The notes: generated by a model from the sequence alone, not told the origin. Positions 5,779 to 40,595 are shown, counted from the first letter of the stretch. The stretch is DNA of 40,595 nucleotides from a virus (IMGVR_UViG_2541047967_000005:1-40595), one strand, 5' to 3'. Made by a program: numbers and translations.

Positions 5779-5798
5779 TACTGTATAAATATACAGTT
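5779..5798 (+). promoter_or_regulatory. LexA (SOS) box overlapping the promoter of the downstream small gene
   Basis: tactgtataaatatacagtt: CTGT-N8-ACAG with AT-rich spacer, close to the E. coli consensus TACTGTATATATATACAGTA; contains a -10-like tataaa. Confidence 0.75.
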
Positions 5799-5818
5799 AT
5801 TGCATGGAGAAGATTAAG

Positions 5819-6076
5819 ATGCAGCAGTATCACTATCCACTGGAAGAGGGATTTACCGAAAGGATTCACACGCCGGGAGGCGTCAGGTCACTGGTGGAGG
5901 GATCGCACTTGATGAAATTACTCCGGGATCTCGATAAGGATGGATTTAATGTCGATGGCCCACTTGCCGAACTGACTGCACTGATTAACTACGTCACCAG
6001 CTCACAGATGTCTATGCAGGATCTGCAAACACATCTCGACTATTGTGCCGAACAATTACGAAAACAAACCAGATAA
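5819..6076 (+). CDS. Small SOS-regulated anti-repressor-like protein (C-domain paralogue of the Bro proteins)
   Basis: RBS ggagaag 8 nt upstream of ATG 5819 (the track ORF starts at 5804, inside the RBS); C-terminal motif AELTALINYV ... DLQTHLDY parallels AELTTMFCYIV ... DIQTHAEY of both Bro-N proteins; LexA box directly upstream. Confidence 0.6.
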   Translation: MQQYHYPLEEGFTERIHTPGGVRSLVEGSHLMKLLRDLDKDGFNVDGPLAELTALINYVTSSQMSMQDLQTHLDYCAEQLRKQTR

Positions 6077-6212
6077 GATTTGAAATTACCAATAGGAGTG
6101 CTTATATTTACCTTTGCAGTAAATTTACATCGCACTCCTCTTGTGCCATAGTAATCGGGCACTGGCAAAATCCAGTGCCGGGATTGGCGTCCCGGGTTAC
6201 TAAGTGGCGCAT

Positions 6213-6235
6213 ACCACGCCAGACGTGGTTTTTTT
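6213..6235 (+). terminator. Rho-independent terminator inside the Bro1 leader
   Basis: ccacg ccaga cgtgg followed by seven T; a matching hairpin plus T-run sits at the mirrored position upstream of Bro2. Confidence 0.6.
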
Positions 6236-6391
6236 ATGCGTTAAGCACAGCTATATCCGAATTATGGTGGGCTGGGCAGGGGTCCGAAAGGACGCCGGTA
6301 CCACTTAGGCCGGTACGCCAACCTTGTCCAGTTCACCACCAGTAATTGGCGTTGCGGTGGTGATTAAAATCACTAAGTGGAGATAACCACC

Positions 6392-7102
6392 ATGGCTAAT
6401 GCTCAAACTGCCATCTTCAAATTTGAATCTGTTAACCCTATCCGTTCCATCATTATCGATGGCCAACCATGGTTTGTAGCCCAAGACGTTTGTAGTGCGC
6501 TGCGTATCCAAAACGTCACCCAAGCACTTGAAAAACTGGATGATGATGAAAGGTCTATGTTCAACATAGGGCATGAACATCGTGCAATTTTTGACAGCCG
6601 AGTAAAAGAGATCAACATTATCTCCGAGTCAGGCCTCTACACACTGATCCTCCGCTGCCGCGACGCAGTGACACCAGGCACTATCCCCTACCGCTTTCGT
6701 AAATGGGTTACAGGTGAGGTTCTTCCTCAGATCCGCCGCACCGGAAGTTACATTAAAAACTCGCTCCCGCAGGAAGAACGCATAAAGATGGTTGCCGACC
6801 AGGTAGCCAACGCCACGGCGTCAGCAGTAATGCAGGCGATGAAGATAGAGAACAAAACCTACAGCGCCCCACTGAAGCCCGGCTACCGCAGCCTGATTCA
6901 TTCGCCGTCTGGTGTTCTCGGCCTGACGGAGAACTCACTGCTGATGAATCTGCTGAACCAGTTACAGGAAGACGGGCACGATGTATCGGGCGCGGCGGCG
7001 GAGCTGACCACCATGTTCTGCTACATCGTCGGTGTGAGCAAATGCCTGCGTGATATCCAGACCCACGCGGAGTACATCAACGACAAAGCAGGATTCTTCT
7101 GA
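6392..7102 (+). CDS. Bro-N domain anti-repressor-like protein (paralogue 1)
   Basis: RBS ggag 9 nt upstream of ATG 6392; Bro-N pattern (IFKFESVNPIRSIIIDGQPWFVAQDVCSAL); C-terminal 158 aa identical to the 8373-9059 product. Confidence 0.75.
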   Translation: MANAQTAIFKFESVNPIRSIIIDGQPWFVAQDVCSALRIQNVTQALEKLDDDERSMFNIGHEHRAIFDSRVKEINIISESGLYTLILRCRDAVTPGTIPYRFRKWVTGEVLPQIRRTGSYIKNSLPQEERIKMVADQVANATASAVMQAMKIENKTYSAPLKPGYRSLIHSPSGVLGLTENSLLMNLLNQLQEDGHDVSGAAAELTTMFCYIVGVSKCLRDIQTHAEYINDKAGFF

Positions 7103-7174
7103 CGGGCGGCGGCACAGGGATGTGCCTTTAAATAATTCTGTACAGATTGCAGACCGGGGGTGAATAGCGTACTA

Positions 7175-7189
7175 TTACCTTAAAGGTAA
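7175..7189. promoter_or_regulatory. Operator-like palindrome TTACC-N5-GGTAA upstream of the cargo cassette
   Basis: ttaccttaaaggtaa, about 45 nt upstream of the 7232 start. Confidence 0.5.
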
Positions 7190-7231
7190 ACCTGTTTTTA
7201 TTTTATACCTGTAACTTACCGGAGATTAAAG

Positions 7232-7558
7232 ATGACAAAACTTGGATTCGTGATGAGAGGTCCGGTAAGAAGCGGAACTCATGCAAAGCGTAGCAAGAGT
7301 CGTATTTTTACTGGTAAGGTTGTAGCACGTAAATCAGCTATTGGCTCGTTCAATAGTGAAAATGCGGCATTGCGCCATATTTTTATCAGCACAAAGCCAA
7401 GAGCATCCGCTGATGTGCATACAATGTCTATTCCTATCACAAAGAATATCAAGCGGATAAAAAAGCTCTCATCTGCAGAATCAAAAGAGATATCTTTCCG
7501 CCAGCTTAACTCATTAGAAACGCATATGAAGGAAGAGGAATTCGATGTTTTTGAGTGA
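7232..7558 (+). CDS. Basic 108-aa protein of unknown function; first gene of the low-GC two-gene cassette (candidate antitoxin/immunity partner)
   Basis: RBS ggag 7 nt upstream; Lys/Arg-rich N-terminus, acidic C-terminus (EEEFDVFE); AT-rich with AGA codons; 3' end overlaps the next gene by 14 nt. Confidence 0.5.
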   Translation: MTKLGFVMRGPVRSGTHAKRSKSRIFTGKVVARKSAIGSFNSENAALRHIFISTKPRASADVHTMSIPITKNIKRIKKLSSAESKEISFRQLNSLETHMKEEEFDVFE

Positions 7559-8057
7559 GTATAGCGGGAAGGTTATACCTACTGGTGAGTTTAAAACTGA
7601 TGACTTTCTGATTTCGCTAAAAGATGCTTTTAAACAACACTGGCGTCATGGTCATCATCCTGATCTGGGAAAAGATACTCTTTTTGAAAGACCAGACGAA
7701 GTATTAGGCTTCCATCTCAGAAAGGTTCATGTCAATATTGGTGAATATGCATCATATTCATACTCATGTACTGAACAGTGTTGGGATGAGTGGTCATATG
7801 GATTGATTGATGAACAAGGAAATTACAGGCCAAAACCAACCAGTAACGCATATCTCATATATGCAGTCAATGAAATAAGAGATGCAGCCTTACTAGCTTA
7901 TTGGGACCCGCCCGCACACACCAAAGCTAACGCAAAAGTTTGGATGGATTCCGTATTGAATTTCACAAAATTATTTCATGAACGAACGAATACAGCTCCA
8001 CTTAGTAGAAATGTTTATCCGTGGGATTATTCGTACAAATCCAAAAAGCCTGCATAG
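7545..8057 (+). CDS. 170-aa protein of unknown function; second gene of the cassette (candidate toxin/effector, possibly YafO-like)
   Basis: Strong RBS ggaagagga upstream of ATG 7545; translationally coupled to the upstream ORF; low GC; motifs (LFERPDEVLGFHL ... AYLIYAV ... ALLAYWDPPAH) loosely recall YafO-family toxins from memory, not verified. Confidence 0.5.
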   Translation: MFLSEYSGKVIPTGEFKTDDFLISLKDAFKQHWRHGHHPDLGKDTLFERPDEVLGFHLRKVHVNIGEYASYSYSCTEQCWDEWSYGLIDEQGNYRPKPTSNAYLIYAVNEIRDAALLAYWDPPAHTKANAKVWMDSVLNFTKLFHERTNTAPLSRNVYPWDYSYKSKKPA

Positions 8058-8138
8058 TAGTTTTTTATGGACGAAACAAAAGTCAGTGCTACACTCATTG
8101 ACGCCACATTGAGGTGGCTTATAGATGGAAATTTCACA

Positions 8139-8300
8139 ATGAAAAAAGCATTTGCTGCACTGTTCGTTTTGTTGTCTCTGGTAGCTTCAACTCAGGCCTT
8201 TGCCGGTCGTTGTCAGCACGACAGCGACACTGCTGCTGACGGCTCCCGCTGCGGTGGGCGTTCTGCGGATTCCCGCCCTGGCGGCGGTGGCATTCGTTAA
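8139..8300 (+). CDS. Small secreted Cys/Gly/Arg-rich peptide (~53 aa precursor), unknown function
   Basis: Internal ATG followed by a signal peptide (MKKAFAALFVLLSLVASTQAFA) and ~31-aa mature part; weak RBS, so the call is tentative; the track ORF starts at 8067. Confidence 0.35.
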   Translation: MKKAFAALFVLLSLVASTQAFAGRCQHDSDTAADGSRCGGRSADSRPGGGGIR

Positions 8301-8306
8301 AAACAA

Positions 8307-8322
8307 GGCCGCGAAAGCGGCC
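8307..8322. terminator. Bidirectional hairpin terminator between the convergent cassette and Bro2
   Basis: ggccgc gaaa gcggcc (GNRA loop); A-run upstream on plus equals T-run on minus; terminates Bro2 on the minus strand. Confidence 0.55.
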
Positions 8323-8323
8323 T

Positions 8324-8335
8324 GTGACATGTCAC
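8324..8335. repeat. 12-bp palindrome GTGACATGTCAC (copy 1 of 3)
   Basis: Exact palindrome immediately next to the bidirectional terminator, in the unique segment between the inverted-repeat arms. Confidence 0.7.
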
Positions 8336-8372
8336 GATAGTTTCGTTTTGCACATCCCTGTGCCGCCGCCCG

Positions 8373-9059
8373 TCAGAAGAACCCTGCCTTGTCGTTGATG
8401 TACTCCGCGTGCGTCTGGATATCACGCAGGCATTTGCTCACACCAACGATGTAGCAGAACATGGTGGTCAGCTCCGCCGCCGCGCCCGATACATCGTGCC
8501 CGTCTTCCTGTAACTGGTTCAGCAGATTCATCAGCAGTGAGTTCTCCGTCAGGCCGAGAACACCCGACGGAGAATGAATCAGGCTGCGGTAGCCGGGCTT
8601 CAGTGGGGCACTGTAGGTTTTGTTCTCTATCTTCATCGCCTGCATTACTGCTGACGCCGTGGCGTTGGCTACCTGGTCGGCAACCATCTTTATGCGTTCT
8701 TCCTGCGGGAGCGAGTTTTTAATGTAACTTCCGGTGCGGCGGATCTGAGGAAGAACCTCACCCGTAACCCATTTACGAAAGCGGTAGGGGATAGTGCCTG
8801 GTGTCACCGCATCGCGGCAGCGGAGGATCAGTGTGTAGAGGCCTGACTCGTTGATAATATTGGTTTCGCCTTGACGGCCTAAGTTAAATTTAGCCCTTTC
8901 ATCATCATCAAGAGATTTTATTGACATAGTGGGGTTTGTCAGTTGAAGAGCTTTAATAACGTCTTTGGCAACAAACCAAGGATTTCCATCAATAACAATG
9001 GCTCGAATGGTTGCCTCTGATTCAAAATGAAAAACAGATGGGGTTACGTTAGCAGTCAT
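8373..9059 (-). CDS. Bro-N domain anti-repressor-like protein (paralogue 2)
   Basis: Internal ATG (MTANVTPSVFHFESE...) with RBS aggtga; Bro-N pattern (IDGNPWFVAKDVIKAL); C-terminal 158 aa identical to Bro1. Confidence 0.75.
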   Translation of the reverse strand: MTANVTPSVFHFESEATIRAIVIDGNPWFVAKDVIKALQLTNPTMSIKSLDDDERAKFNLGRQGETNIINESGLYTLILRCRDAVTPGTIPYRFRKWVTGEVLPQIRRTGSYIKNSLPQEERIKMVADQVANATASAVMQAMKIENKTYSAPLKPGYRSLIHSPSGVLGLTENSLLMNLLNQLQEDGHDVSGAAAELTTMFCYIVGVSKCLRDIQTHAEYINDKAGFF

Positions 9060-9325
9060 AGTGATCACCTTTGTAGTTAGGTTAATCACCACTACCGACG
9101 CCAATCGGTTGGTGGTGAACTGTGCAGGGTTGGCGTAACCGGCTACAAAGGACCCGGCGCACCTTTCGGTGCCCCCACACAGCCCACCATAGAATAGGTG
9201 CGCTTTACACATAAAAAAACCGCTTATGCGGCATATGTGCCTCTGTAGTAACCCAGGACGCCAATCCCGGCACTGGATTTTGCCAGTGCCTGATTACTAT
9301 GGCACAAGAGGAGTGCGATGTAAAT

Positions 9326-9340
9326 TTACCGAAAAGGTAA
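9326..9340. promoter_or_regulatory. Operator-like palindrome TTACC-N5-GGTAA upstream of the Bro2 leader
   Basis: ttaccgaaaaggtaa; the mirrored site in the left arm (6108-6122, ttacctttgcagtaa) has one mismatch. Confidence 0.5.
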
Positions 9341-9487
9341 TGATAAACGCTAAGAAATATTAAAATCAACCATATTTGGTTAATGCGTATAAAAGAGCCA
9401 GCAGCGAGAAATTGTGCCGCGACGTAAAATAACGAGCATCTGCTGGCTTACAACCAGCGATGTTTCAAATTTGTCACTATTATCAAC

Positions 9488-9841
9488 GTGCCATTCCACG
9501 GCGCAGAACTTTATGTTGTCAATCACAACGGAGAACCGTACACCCCAATGAAACCTATCGTTGAAGGCATGGGTATGGATTGGGCTTCACAGTTTACGAA
9601 AATGAAGCAGCGGTTTAAAACCTGCATTGTGAAAATCACAATGCAGCTTCCTGGGGATGAACAGCGCCGTGAGATTATTTGTTTGGCACTTCGCAAACTT
9701 GCTGGCTGGTTGCAAACCATCAGCCCTAACAAAGTCCGCCCTGAAATCCGCGAAAGTATTGAAACATCAACCGTGTCGATATCGACACGGTTGATTATGA
9801 CGGTAACTTATTGCCGTGTGTCCTATTTCTCCCACCACTAA
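9488..9841 (+). pseudogene. Remnant of a P22 Ant-type anti-repressor (N-terminal domain only)
   Basis: GTG start with no RBS; FHGAELYVVNHNGEPYTPMKPIVEGMGMDW ... LRKLAGWLQTISPNKVRPEIRE resembles the Ant N-terminal domain, then degenerates and stops after ~117 codons; no C-terminal domain in any frame. Confidence 0.45.
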
Positions 9842-10138
9842 CTAATTATATTTGTCTTTAAAAATCTCATGGAATGATTGAGAGTAAGACTTTCCATACT
9901 TCAAATAACATTCTTCATCCAACTTTCTTAATGAACTTCGAACCTGTTCGTGGCATACAGCAAAAAAAACAAGTCCGCCGCCTATTAATACCCCTATTGA
10001 TATTGGGTTCGCAACATCCCATAAAAAATCGGCTAACAGAGCAAATACCCCACCGCCGCCAATAAATGCCCCTATAGCTCGGTTCGTTTTAGCTTGCTCA
10101 TAGCGTCTCTCTAACTCACTAAACTCTTTAATATCCAT
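9842..10138 (-). CDS. Small two-TM membrane protein; candidate superinfection-exclusion protein at a sieA-like position
   Basis: RBS agaggtg upstream of ATG; two Gly-rich hydrophobic segments; AT-rich; directly downstream of the ejection-protein genes and upstream of the anti-repressor region. Confidence 0.4.
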   Translation of the reverse strand: MDIKEFSELERRYEQAKTNRAIGAFIGGGGVFALLADFLWDVANPISIGVLIGGGLVFFAVCHEQVRSSLRKLDEECYLKYGKSYSQSFHEIFKDKYN

Positions 10139-10156
10139 ATAAGCACCTCTATAAAA

Positions 10157-25684: not shown

Positions 25685-25762
25685 ACAGCAGGACGCCATT
25701 GCGATGACTTCATGCTGTAAACCAGTACAGCCACGGAAGGCATAACTCATTGCTTCCAGTTC

Positions 25763-34381: not shown

Positions 34382-34966
34382 ATGAAAAGTATCCAGGACG
34401 TCCGCAGGCAAAATCTCAACGACTTGATCGACCGTGAATTCAATGGTGTTCAGACGCGGATGGCAGAAAAACTTGGAACTCAGGCAAATCTGGTAAACCG
34501 CTGGGCTCTTGGCAAGAAGGTTATCGGCGACCAGGTTGCGCGAAAAATTGAAGCTGCCGCCAATAAACCCCGTAACTGGCTTGATATCGATCGCTCGCTT
34601 TCTCAGGAAGGTTTTCAGCCTGTCGGCCCAAGCGACATTGGTCAGCTGGCAGCTCACAACCTGGAACGCTGGATGAGTGAAAGCCGCGACCTTTCAACTC
34701 AGGGAAAACTTCACCGCGCATCCGGCGTCGCCCAGGTGACAATAAGCCGCCTGTTAAACAATGAGGTCAGCGTTTCCATTTCCACCCTGGAGAATGTTGC
34801 ATCTGCATTCGGGCGTCACGGATATGAACTACTGATTCATCCGCATGACCCTGCGACCATCAACTATGATCGCTCGCGCTACGCATTGTTACCCGAAACC
34901 GAGAAAGCAAAGATCGAAAGTTACATTGAATTTGTCATCAACCAGAACGAAAAAAACAAACAATAA
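34382..34966 (+). CDS. Prophage repressor-like protein with two HTH segments and no LexA-type peptidase domain
   Basis: 194 aa; HTH-like segments GVQTRMAEKLGTQANLVNRWALGKK and GVAQVTISRLLNNEV; no S24 autopeptidase motifs seen; divergent from the Cro-like gene. Confidence 0.5.
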   Translation: MKSIQDVRRQNLNDLIDREFNGVQTRMAEKLGTQANLVNRWALGKKVIGDQVARKIEAAANKPRNWLDIDRSLSQEGFQPVGPSDIGQLAAHNLERWMSESRDLSTQGKLHRASGVAQVTISRLLNNEVSVSISTLENVASAFGRHGYELLIHPHDPATINYDRSRYALLPETEKAKIESYIEFVINQNEKNKQ

Positions 34967-34989
34967 AACCATATTTTTCAGTAAGTAAG

Positions 34990-35012
34990 TCGCCTTATGG
35001 CGGCTTTTTTAT
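34990..35012 (+). terminator. Short hairpin plus T-run after the repressor-like gene
   Basis: cgcc ttat ggcg followed by cttttttatt. Confidence 0.45.
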
Positions 35013-35023
35013 TGCCTATTCGA

Positions 35024-35038
35024 TTACCTAACGGGTAA
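35024..35038. promoter_or_regulatory. Operator-like palindrome TTACC-N5-GGTAA (upstream site of a pair)
   Basis: ttacctaacgggtaa, 20 nt upstream of a consensus -35. Confidence 0.5.
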
Positions 35039-35057
35039 TTTTTTTAACTCATATCTA

Positions 35058-35100
35058 TTGACATCAAACCATATACGCATAATTATTACCTCAACGGTAA
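35058..35100 (+). promoter_or_regulatory. Candidate early rightward promoter (-35 TTGACA) with operator-like palindrome over the -10/start region
   Basis: ttgaca at 35058-35063; AT-rich -10-like cataat/ataatt; ttacctcaacggtaa at 35086-35100; drives the small ORF and the RecE/RecT operon. Confidence 0.5.
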
Positions 35101-35119
35101 CAGACCGAGGTAACAAGTT

Positions 35120-35272
35120 ATGCAGTGGAAAATCATCAACGGTTGGTACTGCGTTACTGCATGCGGATTCATGAGCTGGAAGTTCCGCACCTTACAGGAA
35201 GGCATTAAGTGGGCTTTCGTCAGCAAAGAAGCTCGCGATGTGGCCAACGATAACGAGATATGGGAGGGCTGA
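35120..35272 (+). CDS. Small 50-aa protein, first gene of the early rightward operon
   Basis: RBS gagg upstream of ATG 35120; Trp/Cys-rich; below the 60-aa cutoff of the ORF track. Confidence 0.35.
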   Translation: MQWKIINGWYCVTACGFMSWKFRTLQEGIKWAFVSKEARDVANDNEIWEG

Positions 35273-35274
35273 TA

Positions 35275-35574
35275 ATGAACGTTAATCAGCAGAAAAATCT
35301 TCAAAAAATCATGCTGGCATTCGACAAGGACTACCGTCTGTCAGAACAGCTATATGACCGACAAGTTGAACTGATTGAGAGTATCCGGCTTCATCAACTG
35401 GCATCAACTTTCGACGTTGTAACAGTTAAAGGCGTTCGCCAGGAAGTACTGGAGGCCGCTAAAGACAGCCCTGAGTTCGAAGAACTAATGGATGCCTACC
35501 GGCGCGAGGCAATGGCAATTATCGCCCGCTGGGATCTGGCTGATCAGCTTGATGGGCAGAGGGACGCGGCATGA
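35275..35574 (+). CDS. Hypothetical early protein (99 aa)
   Basis: Internal ATG with RBS gggaggg; coupled (ATGA) to the downstream nuclease gene. Confidence 0.45.
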   Translation: MNVNQQKNLQKIMLAFDKDYRLSEQLYDRQVELIESIRLHQLASTFDVVTVKGVRQEVLEAAKDSPEFEELMDAYRREAMAIIARWDLADQLDGQRDAA

Positions 35575-36392
35575 AACCGGGAATTTATTTCGACATCAGC
35601 AACGAAGACTACCACGCCGGTGACGGCGTGAGTAAGTCGCAACTGGACATGGTTGCCAAGAATCCGGCGCTTCTTAAATGGGTTCAGGCAGCACCAGAAG
35701 ACGAAGAGAAAAAGTCTGCACTGGATATGGGAACCGCATTGCACTGTCTGCTTCTGGAGCCTGGAGAGTTCGACAAACGCTTCATTGTTTCACCGAAATT
35801 CGATCGTCGGACGAAACAAGGTAAAGCTGACGAAGAGGAATTTCTTCGTGATGTGGCGGATATGGGGATTACGGTACTTGATGCCGAGCAGTGGCGGAAA
35901 CTGGAGCTGATGCGTGATAGCGCAATGGCTCACCCGGCGGCACGCTGGATGCTGGAAGCACCTGGTTACTGCGAAGCATCAATGTACTGGAACGATGAAG
36001 AGACGGGGGAGTTGTGCCGAATTCGTCCAGACAAATGGCTGAACGAGCACAACGTGATCGTCGACGTGAAAAAGGTTGCAGATATGGACCGTTTTGCACG
36101 CCACATCGAGGAATTCCGCTACCACGTGCAGGACGCAATGTACCGCGAAGGCGCAATGAGGGTTACTGGTCAGCCGCATGGTTTTTTCTTTCTTGCCGTG
36201 AGCGAAAGCATTGATTGTGGTCGGTATCCGGTACGCGTGTTCGAGCTGGATGCGCAGGATGTCGATGCCGGGCACGCTCTGTTCCGCCGGGATCTGAATA
36301 CCTATCACGAATGCCGCATCAATGATGAATGGGGCGGTGTGGAAATCATTAAACGCCCTGAGTGGGCACGCAAACAGGATATGTACATATGA
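35571..36392 (+). CDS. RecE-like PD-(D/E)XK exonuclease
   Basis: Acidic/Lys nuclease motifs (IRPDKWLNEHNVIVDVKKV); immediately upstream of and coupled to RecT. Confidence 0.55.
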   Translation: MKPGIYFDISNEDYHAGDGVSKSQLDMVAKNPALLKWVQAAPEDEEKKSALDMGTALHCLLLEPGEFDKRFIVSPKFDRRTKQGKADEEEFLRDVADMGITVLDAEQWRKLELMRDSAMAHPAARWMLEAPGYCEASMYWNDEETGELCRIRPDKWLNEHNVIVDVKKVADMDRFARHIEEFRYHVQDAMYREGAMRVTGQPHGFFFLAVSESIDCGRYPVRVFELDAQDVDAGHALFRRDLNTYHECRINDEWGGVEIIKRPEWARKQDMYI

Positions 36393-37330
36393 GCAACGAC
36401 ATCGCAAACATCAACGCACCAGTAGACACAGCAATCGCTGGAACTGCTGCAACTATTTTCAGCCCAGACGGCTTGAACCAACTGATGAAATTCGCCGAGG
36501 TAATGGCGCAAAGCCGCGTAACGGTACCGGCGCACCTCGCCGGGAAACCAGCTGATTGCATGGCCGTGGCAATGCAGGCTGCGCAGTGGGGAATGAACCC
36601 GTTTGCCGTGGCTCAGAAAACCCATGTTGTGAACGGCACGCTAGGTTATGAAGCCCAATTAGTAAACGCAGTTATCTCAACGATGTCGCCAACAAAAGAT
36701 CGCATCAACTACGAGTGGTTCGGGCCGTGGGAACGCGTGATCGGTAAGTTTGTTGAGAAAACATCCAAAAACGGCAATCCATATATCGCACCAGGCTGGA
36801 CTCTAAAAGACGAAGAAGGCTGCGGTGTTCGCGTATGGGCAACCATGAAGGGCGAGGATCAACCTCGAGTGCTTGAGTTAATGCTGTCTCAAGCACAGGT
36901 AAGAAACTCCACACTTTGGGCCAGTGATCCGAAACAACAACTCGCATACCTTGCGACAAAACGCTGGTCTCGCCTGCACTGTCCTGACGTAATCATGGGC
37001 GTCTACACCCCAGACGAATTACAGGAAACGGCACCGCGCGTTGAGCGAGACATTACTCCGCAAACGACCACTGCTGCGGGAATGAACAGTCTGATCAACG
37101 CTAAACCAGCGAAAAAGCCTGATGAGCAAACGCGTAAATCGGACAGCCGTGATCCAGAAGAAATGCTGATGGCCTTTACCAGCGCAGCGATGAATTACAG
37201 CACTGTCTCCGAACTGGATAAGGCTTACAAATACATTGCACAAAAACTTTCAGATGATGACGAACTGCTGGCAAAAGCAACCGACGTTTACAGCGTTCGT
37301 CGGGAAGAATTAAACGAAACATCTATGTAA
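36389..37330 (+). CDS. recT: RecT-family single-strand annealing recombinase
   Basis: Internal ATG overlapping the RecE-like stop; RecT-like core (FAEVMAQSRVTVPAHLAGKPADCMAVAMQAAQWGMNPF). Confidence 0.65.
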   Translation: MSNDIANINAPVDTAIAGTAATIFSPDGLNQLMKFAEVMAQSRVTVPAHLAGKPADCMAVAMQAAQWGMNPFAVAQKTHVVNGTLGYEAQLVNAVISTMSPTKDRINYEWFGPWERVIGKFVEKTSKNGNPYIAPGWTLKDEEGCGVRVWATMKGEDQPRVLELMLSQAQVRNSTLWASDPKQQLAYLATKRWSRLHCPDVIMGVYTPDELQETAPRVERDITPQTTTAAGMNSLINAKPAKKPDEQTRKSDSRDPEEMLMAFTSAAMNYSTVSELDKAYKYIAQKLSDDDELLAKATDVYSVRREELNETSM

Positions 37331-39338: not shown

Positions 39339-40595
39339 TTATTTATTACTGTCTTCCATCCACTTCTCAAACTTCGACGGGGAGAACGGAATCAGATCCG
39401 TATGCTCCCCGTTAATCCAGGAATCAATCATATCTGCCCACTGCTGCAACATGTAGGCGCGCTGTCTGGCGTATTCCGCTTTGTTATATACGGCGCGCAC
39501 ACCTTTCTGCTCGTGTGCCAGAGCCTTTTCAATCCAGTCTGAAGGATAACCAGCCTCATGCAACAATGTACTGGCTGTACGGCGCATATCATGTACAGTA
39601 AAATCCTGAATATGCTCACCATCTTCATTTATTATTTTCACCGTTCTGTCGATCAGAGAGTTCAGCGCGGCATTAGATAATGGCTTCCGGAAATTGTAAC
39701 GACCAGGAACCAGATATTCACTTCCACCAGCGCACATCTGCAACCCGACTAATATATCCTGTGCCTGTTTAGGCAGGTAAATAACGTGCGCCCGACTTCC
39801 CTTCATGCGGTCTGAAGGAATTGTCCATGTCCATTTTTTAAAATCTATTTCATCCCACGTTGCATTGGTGAATTCTCCCTTACGAACCATGGTGATAAGC
39901 ACCAGCTTTAAAGCCATTTTCATAGTGCCCATAGCACCAATGGCATCCAGCGTGCGGAAGAACAGGCCAATTTCTTCTGGTGTCAGTGTTCGCTCTCGTG
40001 GTTTAAATATGGCGATAGACGAAGGTTTAATGTCAGCCGCAGGATTAAACAAACCATGACCACGGTCATTGGCGTGACGGTATACGCTGCTGATGATCTC
40101 CCTGGCCTGTACTGCTGTTGCCCGACCACCGCGTTCGACAATCCGGTCACACAAATCACGAACCATTGATGTGGTAATTTCAGCCATCATTTTGTTGCCA
40201 AGAACCGGAAGTATGTCACGGTCGATCACCGCCTGCTTCATTGCGCGGGTACTGTCAGCCAGGATGACGTGTTTCATATAACTGTCGGTATGTACCGCAA
40301 ACGTCTCGGCACCACGAATCTTTTTAATACCGTCACGTTTAGCCGCAGCCGGTGACTGGCCTGCTTTAAGCAGCTTCTTTGCAGCAATCAGTTCTTCTCG
40401 CGCTTCTGCCAGGATGATACCGTCACGCCCATACTGCCCGATTACCAGTGTTTCGCGGCGACCGTTGATACGGTAGTCATAGCGAAACGAGACCGTGCCT
40501 GACGTAAGCACAGCTACATACAGCCCGTCACGATCGGAGACCTTGTACAGTTTGTCCTGCGGCTTGAGGTTTTTTAATTTTGTATCGGTAAGCAC
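39339..40595 (-). CDS. P4-family tyrosine integrase, 5' end cut by the window edge
   Basis: N-terminal LTDTKLKNLKP ... pattern of P4-like integrases; C-terminal HDMRRT and AVYNKAEY catalytic region; the first codon in the window is GTG at the edge. Confidence 0.75.
   Translation of the reverse strand: MLTDTKLKNLKPQDKLYKVSDRDGLYVAVLTSGTVSFRYDYRINGRRETLVIGQYGRDGIILAEAREELIAAKKLLKAGQSPAAAKRDGIKKIRGAETFAVHTDSYMKHVILADSTRAMKQAVIDRDILPVLGNKMMAEITTSMVRDLCDRIVERGGRATAVQAREIISSVYRHANDRGHGLFNPAADIKPSSIAIFKPRERTLTPEEIGLFFRTLDAIGAMGTMKMALKLVLITMVRKGEFTNATWDEIDFKKWTWTIPSDRMKGSRAHVIYLPKQAQDILVGLQMCAGGSEYLVPGRYNFRKPLSNAALNSLIDRTVKIINEDGEHIQDFTVHDMRRTASTLLHEAGYPSDWIEKALAHEQKGVRAVYNKAEYARQRAYMLQQWADMIDSWINGEHTDLIPFSPSKFEKWMEDSNK

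Follow-up and report, generated by a model that had tools for sequence, protein, structure and literature searches.

Two convergent antirepressor modules appear to make up an inverted repeat in a 40,595-nucleotide viral sequence, IMGVR_UViG_2541047967_000005:1-40595, which is referred to here in its entirety as the window and which belongs to a phiV10/epsilon15-like (Uetakevirus) temperate phage of Escherichia coli. We assign a probability of roughly 0.78 to the reading in which the two modules are gated by IsrK-like and C4 RNAs, each encode a Bro-N/Ant protein, differ in RNA specificity, and surround a cargo cassette of low G+C content. Judged by its sequence, each arm would be a complete module of the kind found at P1 immI and at the Gifsy-1 IsrK locus, consisting of a promoter, an IsrK-like leader RNA, a C4 RNA, an ant leader, and a Bro-N gene. 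Because the two RNAs and an Ant-like C terminus are present in each arm, both the extent of the repeat and its conservation are accounted for.

A preliminary description had reported a ~1-kb inverted repeat made of two Bro-N paralogues, and the repeat itself was recovered both by an independent repeat search and by alignment. The search returned an inner pair of arms (6608-7125 and 8350-8867; 518 nucleotides [nt], 97% identity, 15 mismatches) and an outer pair (6097-6202 and 9246-9351; 106 nt, 92% identity) with weaker and shorter matches between them, and the full repeat is 6097-7125 versus 9351-8350. Global alignment of 6092-7140 with the reverse complement of 8341-9360 revealed a mosaic, in which identity was ~98% over the first ~100 nt and 54 to 78% over the next ~400 nt, fell to a minimum of ~38% accompanied by a 27-nt indel, and then jumped sharply to 96 to 100% over the final ~520 nt. 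The genes are convergent, tail-to-tail with their 3' ends facing, and not head-to-head as first described. Moreover, the arms are not Bro genes throughout, as the 5' (outer) third of each is noncoding regulatory RNA, matched by Rfam as an IsrK-like and C4 region, with no Bro coding. The two genes, each far above the Pfam Bro-N gathering score of 25.6, are as follows.

6392-7102, plus strand: Bro1, a Bro-N/Ant fusion of 236 amino acids (aa) (Pfam Bro-N PF02498, 71.5 bits; phrog_130, anti-repressor); by alignment, 6392-6607 is the variable N-terminal part, 6608-7102 is shared with Bro2, and aa 155-231 form an SPC32H-Ant-like domain.
8373-9059, minus strand: Bro2, a Bro-N/Ant fusion of 228 aa (Pfam Bro-N, 72.3 bits), with the shared part at 8373-8867 and the variable N-terminal part at 8868-9059.

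Bro1 and Bro2 have an identical C-terminal 158 aa and the stop codon in common. Over these 474 coding nt the two genes differ at 10 positions, all of them third positions and all synonymous, and the three codons offered as examples in the preliminary description are among the ten. With 113 synonymous and 361 nonsynonymous sites, pS was 0.088 and dN was 0, and the probability that 10 randomly placed changes would all be synonymous is 5.9e-7. The earlier claim of purifying selection is supported for the shared C-terminal region by these values, all 10 changes being synonymous and dN being 0. In Bro1, the identity sets in at residue 79, within the Pfam Bro-N match (residues 17-112). Thus, the divergence of the Bro-N domains that had been noted holds for the first two thirds of the domain but not for the remainder, which falls inside the identical stretch.

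Regulatory RNAs occupy the outer part of both arms. A scan of the whole window with Rfam (gathering scores of 50 for isrK, RF01394, and 45 for C4, RF01695) gave one match to each model in each arm, and a site search added the remaining elements. For arm 1, these are as follows.

6119-6152, plus strand: promoter-like site, TTTACA-17-CATAGT with an extended TG and with the palindrome GTAAATTTAC over the -35, inside the outer block 6097-6202.
6159-6235, plus strand: IsrK-like leader RNA (RF01394, 67.7 bits).
6184-6190, plus strand: site a1, TTGGCGT, in the loop of IsrK hairpin 2.
6200-6207, plus strand: site b1, CTAAGTGG, shortly past IsrK hairpin 2.
6213-6229 and a T-run, plus strand: intrinsic terminator, a terminator-like hairpin closing the IsrK-like element.
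6260-6343, plus strand: C4 antisense RNA (RF01695, 66.0 bits).
6301-6308, plus strand: site b', CCACTTAG, in the loop of C4 hairpin 2.
6315-6321, plus strand: site a', ACGCCAA, in the single-stranded joint of C4.
6344-6391, plus strand: ant leader, 48 nt from C4 to the Bro1 start.
6346-6352, plus strand: site a2, TTGGCGT, directly after C4.
6373-6380, plus strand: site b2, CTAAGTGG, overlapping the Shine-Dalgarno GGAG of Bro1.

The corresponding elements of arm 2 lie on the other strand.

9296-9329, minus strand: promoter-like site with hexamers and palindrome identical to those of arm 1, inside the outer block 9246-9351.
9213-9289, minus strand: IsrK-like leader RNA (RF01394, 72.2 bits).
9258-9264, 9240-9248, and 9232-9219, minus strand: site a1, site b1 (CTACAGAGG), and the terminator with its T-run, respectively, from the site search.
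9108-9194, minus strand: C4 antisense RNA (RF01695, 79.5 bits).
9143-9151 and 9130-9136, minus strand: site b' (CCTTTGTAG, in a loop) and site a' (ACGCCAA) of C4, placed by our own fold.
9060-9107, minus strand: ant leader, 48 nt, with a2 at 9098-9104 and b2 at 9068-9076 (CTACAAAGG, over the Shine-Dalgarno sequence).

Matches to isrK and C4 above the gathering scores were also found in every arm of six related loci, and the minimum-free-energy fold of both window C4 RNAs has the Rfam consensus shape. Neither of the two RefSeq records examined for the same two-arm structure annotates the two small RNAs. No open reading frame (ORF) is present in the 48 nt between C4 and the ant start codon in either arm. 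We note that both C4 elements (6264-6308, plus strand; 9190-9143, minus strand) contain, by eye, an ATG frame of 14 to 15 codons with its TAG within the b' loop, and this frame may be the counterpart of the Gifsy-1 "orf45." As a separate observation, at L023 (1197-1438) and a few other related loci the loop of IsrK hairpin 1 is exactly reverse complemented (CACTGG-ATTTTG-CCAGTG versus CACTGG-CAAAAT-CCAGTG). This resembles a hairpin flip, which either template switching or recombination involving the inverted arms may have left behind.

The sites within each arm are complementary to one another. In arm 1, b' is the exact complement of CTAAGTGG at both b1 and b2, and in arm 2, b' is complementary to both b2 and b1, although the b set differs from that of arm 1. 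In both arms, a' (ACGCCAA) is complementary to the TTGGCGT at a1 and a2. The predicted duplexes between b' and the Shine-Dalgarno region were -11.5 and -9.0 kcal/mol for the cognate pairs but only -3.1 and -4.9 kcal/mol for the cross pairs. To see how the sites vary together, we compared 94 arms from 79 related viral loci and several complete-genome loci, reading covariation from tables that list each site and from matrices of duplex energy; pair counting on a MAFFT alignment of 24 distinct arms was set aside because, between types, the columns for a2 and b' did not line up. Three a-types (ACGCC, AGACC, and GTGCA) and four b-types (CACTTAG, TTTGTAG, TTTTAG, and CTACTAG) occur in seven combinations. 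The a1, a', and a2 sites covary, as do b1, b', and b2, in all but one of the 94 arms. The exception is the recombinant right arm (8251-8492) of L044, a locus that carries three modules instead of two, where a1 is of the ACGCC type and a' and a2 are of the AGACC type; this indicates that a crossover between IsrK and C4 left the decoy site unmatched. The three-way covariation, together with the parallel in phages P1 and P7, is strong comparative evidence that the RNAs would pair as they do in P1.

Modules that reside together never share both types. This holds for 14 pairs from 12 multi-arm loci, with a chance probability of ~0.025 in which the pairs are not independent. The window is alone among the 12 loci in differing at b' only, whereas L035 and one pair in L044 differ at a' only and the remaining pairs differ at both.

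The proteins also point to antirepression. PHROG profiles assign both Bro1 and Bro2 to antirepressors, and Bro1 aa 155-231 match residues 3-79 of PDB 5d50_E ("Anti-repressor protein") at ~40% identity (E = 1.2e-13). Chain E of 5d50 is Ant of the epsilon15-like Salmonella phage SPC32H. SPC32H Ant is under LexA control and disables the repressor Rep by taking the Rep tetramer apart (Kim and Ryu 2013, as cited in PMC7380047 and PMC9638917), and the disrupting species is itself an Ant tetramer (PMC9638917). Homologs of both partners, and a regulatory site, are found in the window outside the repeat.

5781-5796, plus strand: LexA (SOS) box CTGTATAAATATACAG, a near-consensus site (TACTGTATAAATATACAGTT), directly 5' of small ant.
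5819-6076, plus strand: small stand-alone antirepressor of 85 aa, the SPC32H Ant orthologue (89% aa identity; phrog_450).
34382-34960: Rep homologue (match to PDB 5d50_A, E = 4e-42).

The small ant product is 42% identical to Bro1 residues 155-228 and is thus a third copy of the domain at the C termini of Bro1 and Bro2. Although the small Ant is 89% identical to that of SPC32H, the window Rep is only 42% identical to SPC32H Rep. A pattern search for LexA boxes found three sites in the window, but no CTGT-N8-ACAG site was present in either arm, and the sole good LexA box nearby (5781-5796) serves small ant. Thus, the phage would have three proteins with an Ant domain, of which one is SOS gated and the other two are RNA gated. 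Because the LexA box adjoins a gene whose product is 89% identical to SPC32H Ant, the phage probably uses SOS-induced antirepression in place of repressor cleavage. A common repressor target would be the simplest reason that the C-terminal domain is constant while the part upstream of it varies. The palindrome over the -35 was considered as a Rep operator and rejected, as it is present only in the two arms and doesn't recur elsewhere, for example, near rep.

How the modules might work can be proposed from these parts. Two complete immI-type antirepressor modules would have been inserted, convergently, beside the SOS-controlled small ant. In each arm, a sigma-70-like promoter would drive the IsrK-like leader, which carries a1 and b1 and would end at the intrinsic terminator, and read-through would yield the C4 antisense RNA, with a' and b', followed by the ant leader, with a2 and b2. 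By analogy to C4 of P1/P7 and IsrK of Gifsy-1, C4 would pair with a2 and b2 and, as b2 lies over the ribosome-binding site, translation of Bro-N/Ant would be shut off. By offering these sites as well, the short IsrK-like RNA would act as a decoy or an alternative partner and allow derepression. P1 and Gifsy-1 are the basis for proposing that C4 represses and that the IsrK-like RNA acts as a decoy or activator. Once made, the conserved C-terminal ~80 residues, being SPC32H-Ant-like, would be expected to bind and disassemble the SPC32H-type Rep of the phage (34382-34960), and Rep as a shared target would impose the strict purifying selection on the C terminus. Finally, homologous recombination by RecA or by the phage RecE/RecT may act on the long arms to invert or exchange the cargo and to shuffle the N-terminal domains.

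The closest precedent is the immI region of P1 and P7, which governs their heteroimmunity (PMC6906374). There, too, an a1/b1 leader precedes a C4 with a' and b', a2 directly follows C4, and b2 lies ~10 nt before a start codon, with the same order and spacing; in P1 the annotated order is a1, b1, c4, a2, and b2, followed by icd and ant. The C4 RNAs belong to one Rfam family (68.8 bits in P1; 66 and 79.5 bits in the window), and the P1 a1b1 region matches the Rfam model c4-a1b1 (RF03163) and, weakly, isrK, which makes the window IsrK-like element the equivalent of the P1 a1b1 leader. P1 and P7 differ by 2 nt in every one of the three copies of a and the three copies of b, in the same compensatory manner as the window family, and in both systems the regulated product is an antirepressor. 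The window locus differs, however, in lacking an icd-like ORF, such that b2 sits on the antirepressor's own ribosome-binding site; in encoding a Bro-N/SPC32H-Ant-like fusion that is unrelated to P1 Ant1/2; in having no annotated C1-type operator; and in having two convergent modules of different specificity in a podovirus prophage instead of a plasmid prophage. Moreover, P1 and P7 differ from each other at both a and b, whereas the window arms differ at b only.

Other systems share parts of the arrangement. The Gifsy-1 locus comprises IsrK, orf45/STnc1160, and the antirepressor AnrP (PMC4825925). The window leader matches the Rfam isrK model that was built on that locus, and in both cases read-through of a terminator is needed to reach the antirepressor; the stable processed downstream RNA complementary to IsrK that is described for Gifsy-1 (PMC4825925) would likewise have a counterpart in the window. 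In Gifsy-1, however, the downstream element was analyzed as a translated orf45 coupled to anrP, while the window element scores as C4 and has, by eye, no ORF other than the one of 14 to 15 codons, and the AnrP output AntQ is absent from the window. A short IsrK form that activates translation of the read-through mRNA in trans is known for Gifsy-1 only (PMC4825925). The APSE phages of Hamiltonella encode an isrK-family small RNA, a c4-family small RNA, and an adjacent Bro-N, with an upstream region matching a'/b', but as a single module, and the published account mentions neither an Ant-like C-terminal domain nor an inverted duplication nor enclosed cargo (PMC7313666). SPC32H shares with the window the small Ant behind a LexA box, to which the Bro1 and Bro2 C termini are also homologous, and a homologous Rep, but it lacks isrK, C4, and Bro-N genes in the stretch searched (17000-38689, the ant locus included), and the Ant-like domain of the two window proteins is part of a Bro-N fusion that would be controlled by RNA instead of LexA. 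Shuffling of Bro-N, KilA-N, ORF6N, and AntA N-terminal modules among phage regulators was reportedly described by Iyer, Koonin, and Aravind in 2002. The window family resembles that pattern in joining several N-terminal modules to one constant C terminus but differs in that for N1 and N2 the junction lies inside Bro-N and in that the homologous stretches that would enable swapping, one in the promoter/IsrK block and one in the C-terminal arm, are directly visible.

Among related arms, at least five N-terminal types (N1 to N5), four of them Bro-N variants and one (N5) not Bro-N, are joined to the same C terminus, and each is imperfectly linked to C4 type. These fusions bear out the idea, raised in the preliminary description, of a platform for domain swapping. 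In L002, an ORF6N-annotated gene adjoins a sixth kind of arm. The C-terminal 477 nt fall into 81 haplotypes that do not cluster by N-terminal type. The N4-type arms, which were not chosen by protein identity, differ by ~40 nt and by 10 to 12 aa, with the differences clustered in the first 76 nt.

Where the two window arms came from bears on how the repeat is read. The arms appear to be separately circulating population alleles that were joined by recombination, because the distance between them lies within the range seen between phages, the differing sites are polymorphic elsewhere, and each type of arm occurs alone. Under one alternative, a single Bro-N gene would have been duplicated locally in inverted orientation, after which the N terminus diverged fast while selection held the C terminus. 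This reading would fit genes that are adjacent, alike in architecture, and 83% identical overall, with a dN of 0 in the shared part, and it is implied by the word "paralogues" in the preliminary description. We nevertheless consider it improbable. Identity leaps from ~40 to 65% to 97% within ~50 nt, the signature of a recombination junction and not of gradual divergence. The synonymous distance between the arms, 10 nt, is not below the median of 14 between unrelated phages (5 to 95% range, 8 to 20). Moreover, all 10 sites are standing polymorphisms shared with other phages, and at most of them both alleles occur on N1 and N2 backgrounds. Most phages have one module only, resembling arm 1 in some and arm 2 in others, at the same position beside small ant, and each type is found alone there in dozens of phages. 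Finally, where arm 1 occurs in other two-arm loci, it is usually paired with an arm of another type, N4. Paralogy in the sense of a local duplication is thus not supported.

Gene conversion, or concerted evolution, could also have kept the arm proteins identical in place of purifying selection on each copy, and we rate it marginally below duplication. Homogenization does occur in the locus family, as the C-terminal arms of L044 are identical over ~400 nt. In the window, however, the 10 differences are spread across all 474 nt and are all synonymous, whereas conversion would erase differences regardless of class and leaves the synonymous-only pattern unexplained. Moreover, L035, L009, and L078, the three further two-arm loci that were checked, have a comparable or greater number of differences between their arms beyond position 76. 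The pattern is more in keeping with separately acquired alleles than with homogenized copies.

The arms are also substrates for recombination, as had been suggested, and both inversion of the whole segment and inversion of the cassette alone are seen in relatives. L060 is ~98% identical to L045 and L003, but its whole ~3-kb segment with the two modules is reversed with respect to the DNA on either side, and the L060/L045 crossover is confined to a ~70-nt near-identical block that contains the promoter and the first IsrK hairpin. In L044, the cassette is identical to that of L035 at 785 of 785 nt but is flipped relative to the N4 arm (L044 versus L035/L009), with the flip junctions at the ends of the C-terminal arms. 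We take L044 to be the cassette inversion event that the preliminary description proposed, plus homogenization. A comparison of L044 with L078 as a simple cassette flip was discarded, as the inner content differs. A synthetic flipped-cassette junction beside arm 1 was matched, at a coverage of at least 80%, in 1 of 5,426 complete E. coli genomes (MS 196-1). The native query has a match in ~1,100 E. coli genomes, and of the 40 records listed for it, at least 30 have the direct orientation. MS 196-1 itself is not a flip between the C-terminal arms; there, a unit of the N4 arm and cassette is reversed, with a different partner arm. Homologs of RecE/exoVIII and RecT follow Rep (34382-37327 for all three) and could act on such short homologies. 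From these relatives, inversion in the family is real, rare, and of a general-recombination kind.

If the locus were instead a programmed switch like the P1 C segment or the Mu G segment, the arms would be recombination sites, and flipping of the cassette would alter which genes are expressed. Both orientations of the enclosed DNA do exist in nature, and the window cassette is codirectional with Bro1, such that read-through could matter. But no invertase or recombinase domain was found by Pfam and PHROG among the eight main ORFs scanned in 5800-10140, whereas invertible segments of the Cin/Gin/Hin type have an adjacent serine invertase and short crossover sites. Here, the crossovers in relatives differ in position within long homologous arms, one mapping to the ~70-nt promoter block and another to the ~400-nt C-terminal region, as is typical of general homologous recombination, and the flipped form is rare beside the direct one in the counts above. 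We therefore hold a programmed switch to be very unlikely, more so than either duplication or conversion. An assembly artifact, in the form of a chimeric or misjoined repeat, has no specific support and a negligible probability, as the same two-arm architecture and cassette recur in PF9285 and A_5, which are both complete genomes, as well as in several independent viral contigs, and the arms differ by single-nucleotide polymorphisms and in their N-terminal and RNA specificity regions.

Several points weigh against reading the repeat as two RNA-gated antirepressor modules. RNA processing, repression, and Rep binding are all argued from homology. The Ant-like domain is only ~40% identical to the characterized Ant, and Rep is only 42% identical to that of SPC32H. 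The a' site is common to both window arms, and the C4 RNAs may therefore cross-react in part. The related loci were chosen at 98 to 100% protein identity, which biases any population-wide dN/dS taken from them. Finally, the evidence for inversion comes mostly from IMG/VR contigs of draft assemblies, with only MS 196-1 and PF9285 being complete genomes.

The cassette between the arms and the DNA beside arm 2 contain the following features.

7126-8349, plus strand: cargo cassette, with a low G+C content of ~39% compared with ~55% in the arms.
7232-7558, plus strand: phrog_5933 ORF of 108 aa, overlapping the YafO-like ORF.
7545-8057, plus strand: YafO-like toxin candidate of 170 aa (Pfam YafO_toxin, 19.7 bits, below the cutoff of 25).
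8067 or 8139 to 8300, plus strand: small secreted or membrane peptide of 53 to 77 aa with a signal-peptide-like N terminus.
9488-9841, plus strand: truncated N-terminal fragment of a P22-type antirepressor, 117 aa (Pfam P22_AR_N, 109.9 bits), adjoining arm 2.

RefSeq names proteins identical to the 7545-8057 product as YafO family (L002/L003). Scans of the arm and cassette proteins with NCBIfam and PADLOC gave no match. The slot is filled differently in relatives, among others by a gene for a 174-aa membrane-like protein and by one for DUF2335. The P22_AR_N fragment is annotated as an incomplete pseudogene in L003 and L084, and the region at 9488-9841 is both a graveyard and a hot spot of antirepressor modules. 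In TL-2011b, a full P22-type arc/ant pair is found in the corresponding neighborhood. Elsewhere in the window, a tRNA-Arg gene (anticodon TCT) lies inside the phage at 25523-25599, with a CTGT-N8-ACAG site ~120 nt downstream of it (25715-25730), and the integrase gene (39345-40595) runs off the window end.

Every component of the locus comes from a known family, and what is observed is largely ordinary phage mosaicism. What had looked like duplicated Bro genes would be a pair of RNA-controlled switches for induction and anti-immunity. Perhaps two C4 "keys" allow a prophage to silence an incoming ant of either type and allow an infecting phage to escape a resident with only one C4 type, a proposal that we put at somewhat below even odds. 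We speculate further, and regard it as unlikely, that the locus is a dual-key device for immunity and anti-immunity, with two orthogonal C4 RNAs and two differently locked antirepressors, in which arm recombination changes which RNA-gated promoter reads into the YafO-like cargo and a combinatorial RNA specificity code (three a-types by four b-types) drives an arms race among phiV10-like phages. In any case, the locus family would supply at least seven C4/target specificities that can be told apart from one another and that each come with a decoy to match. Such a natural set might find use as orthogonal RNA regulators, and it would be useful for understanding heteroimmunity among E. coli prophages, including the phiV10-like phages used in O157 typing and those associated with Shiga toxin-producing E. 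coli (STEC). Ultimately, the locus may illustrate how temperate phages swap domains, exchange cargo, and undergo inversion by way of conserved flanking sequences, here a promoter/leader block and, at the opposite end, an antirepressor domain that its repressor target keeps constant.

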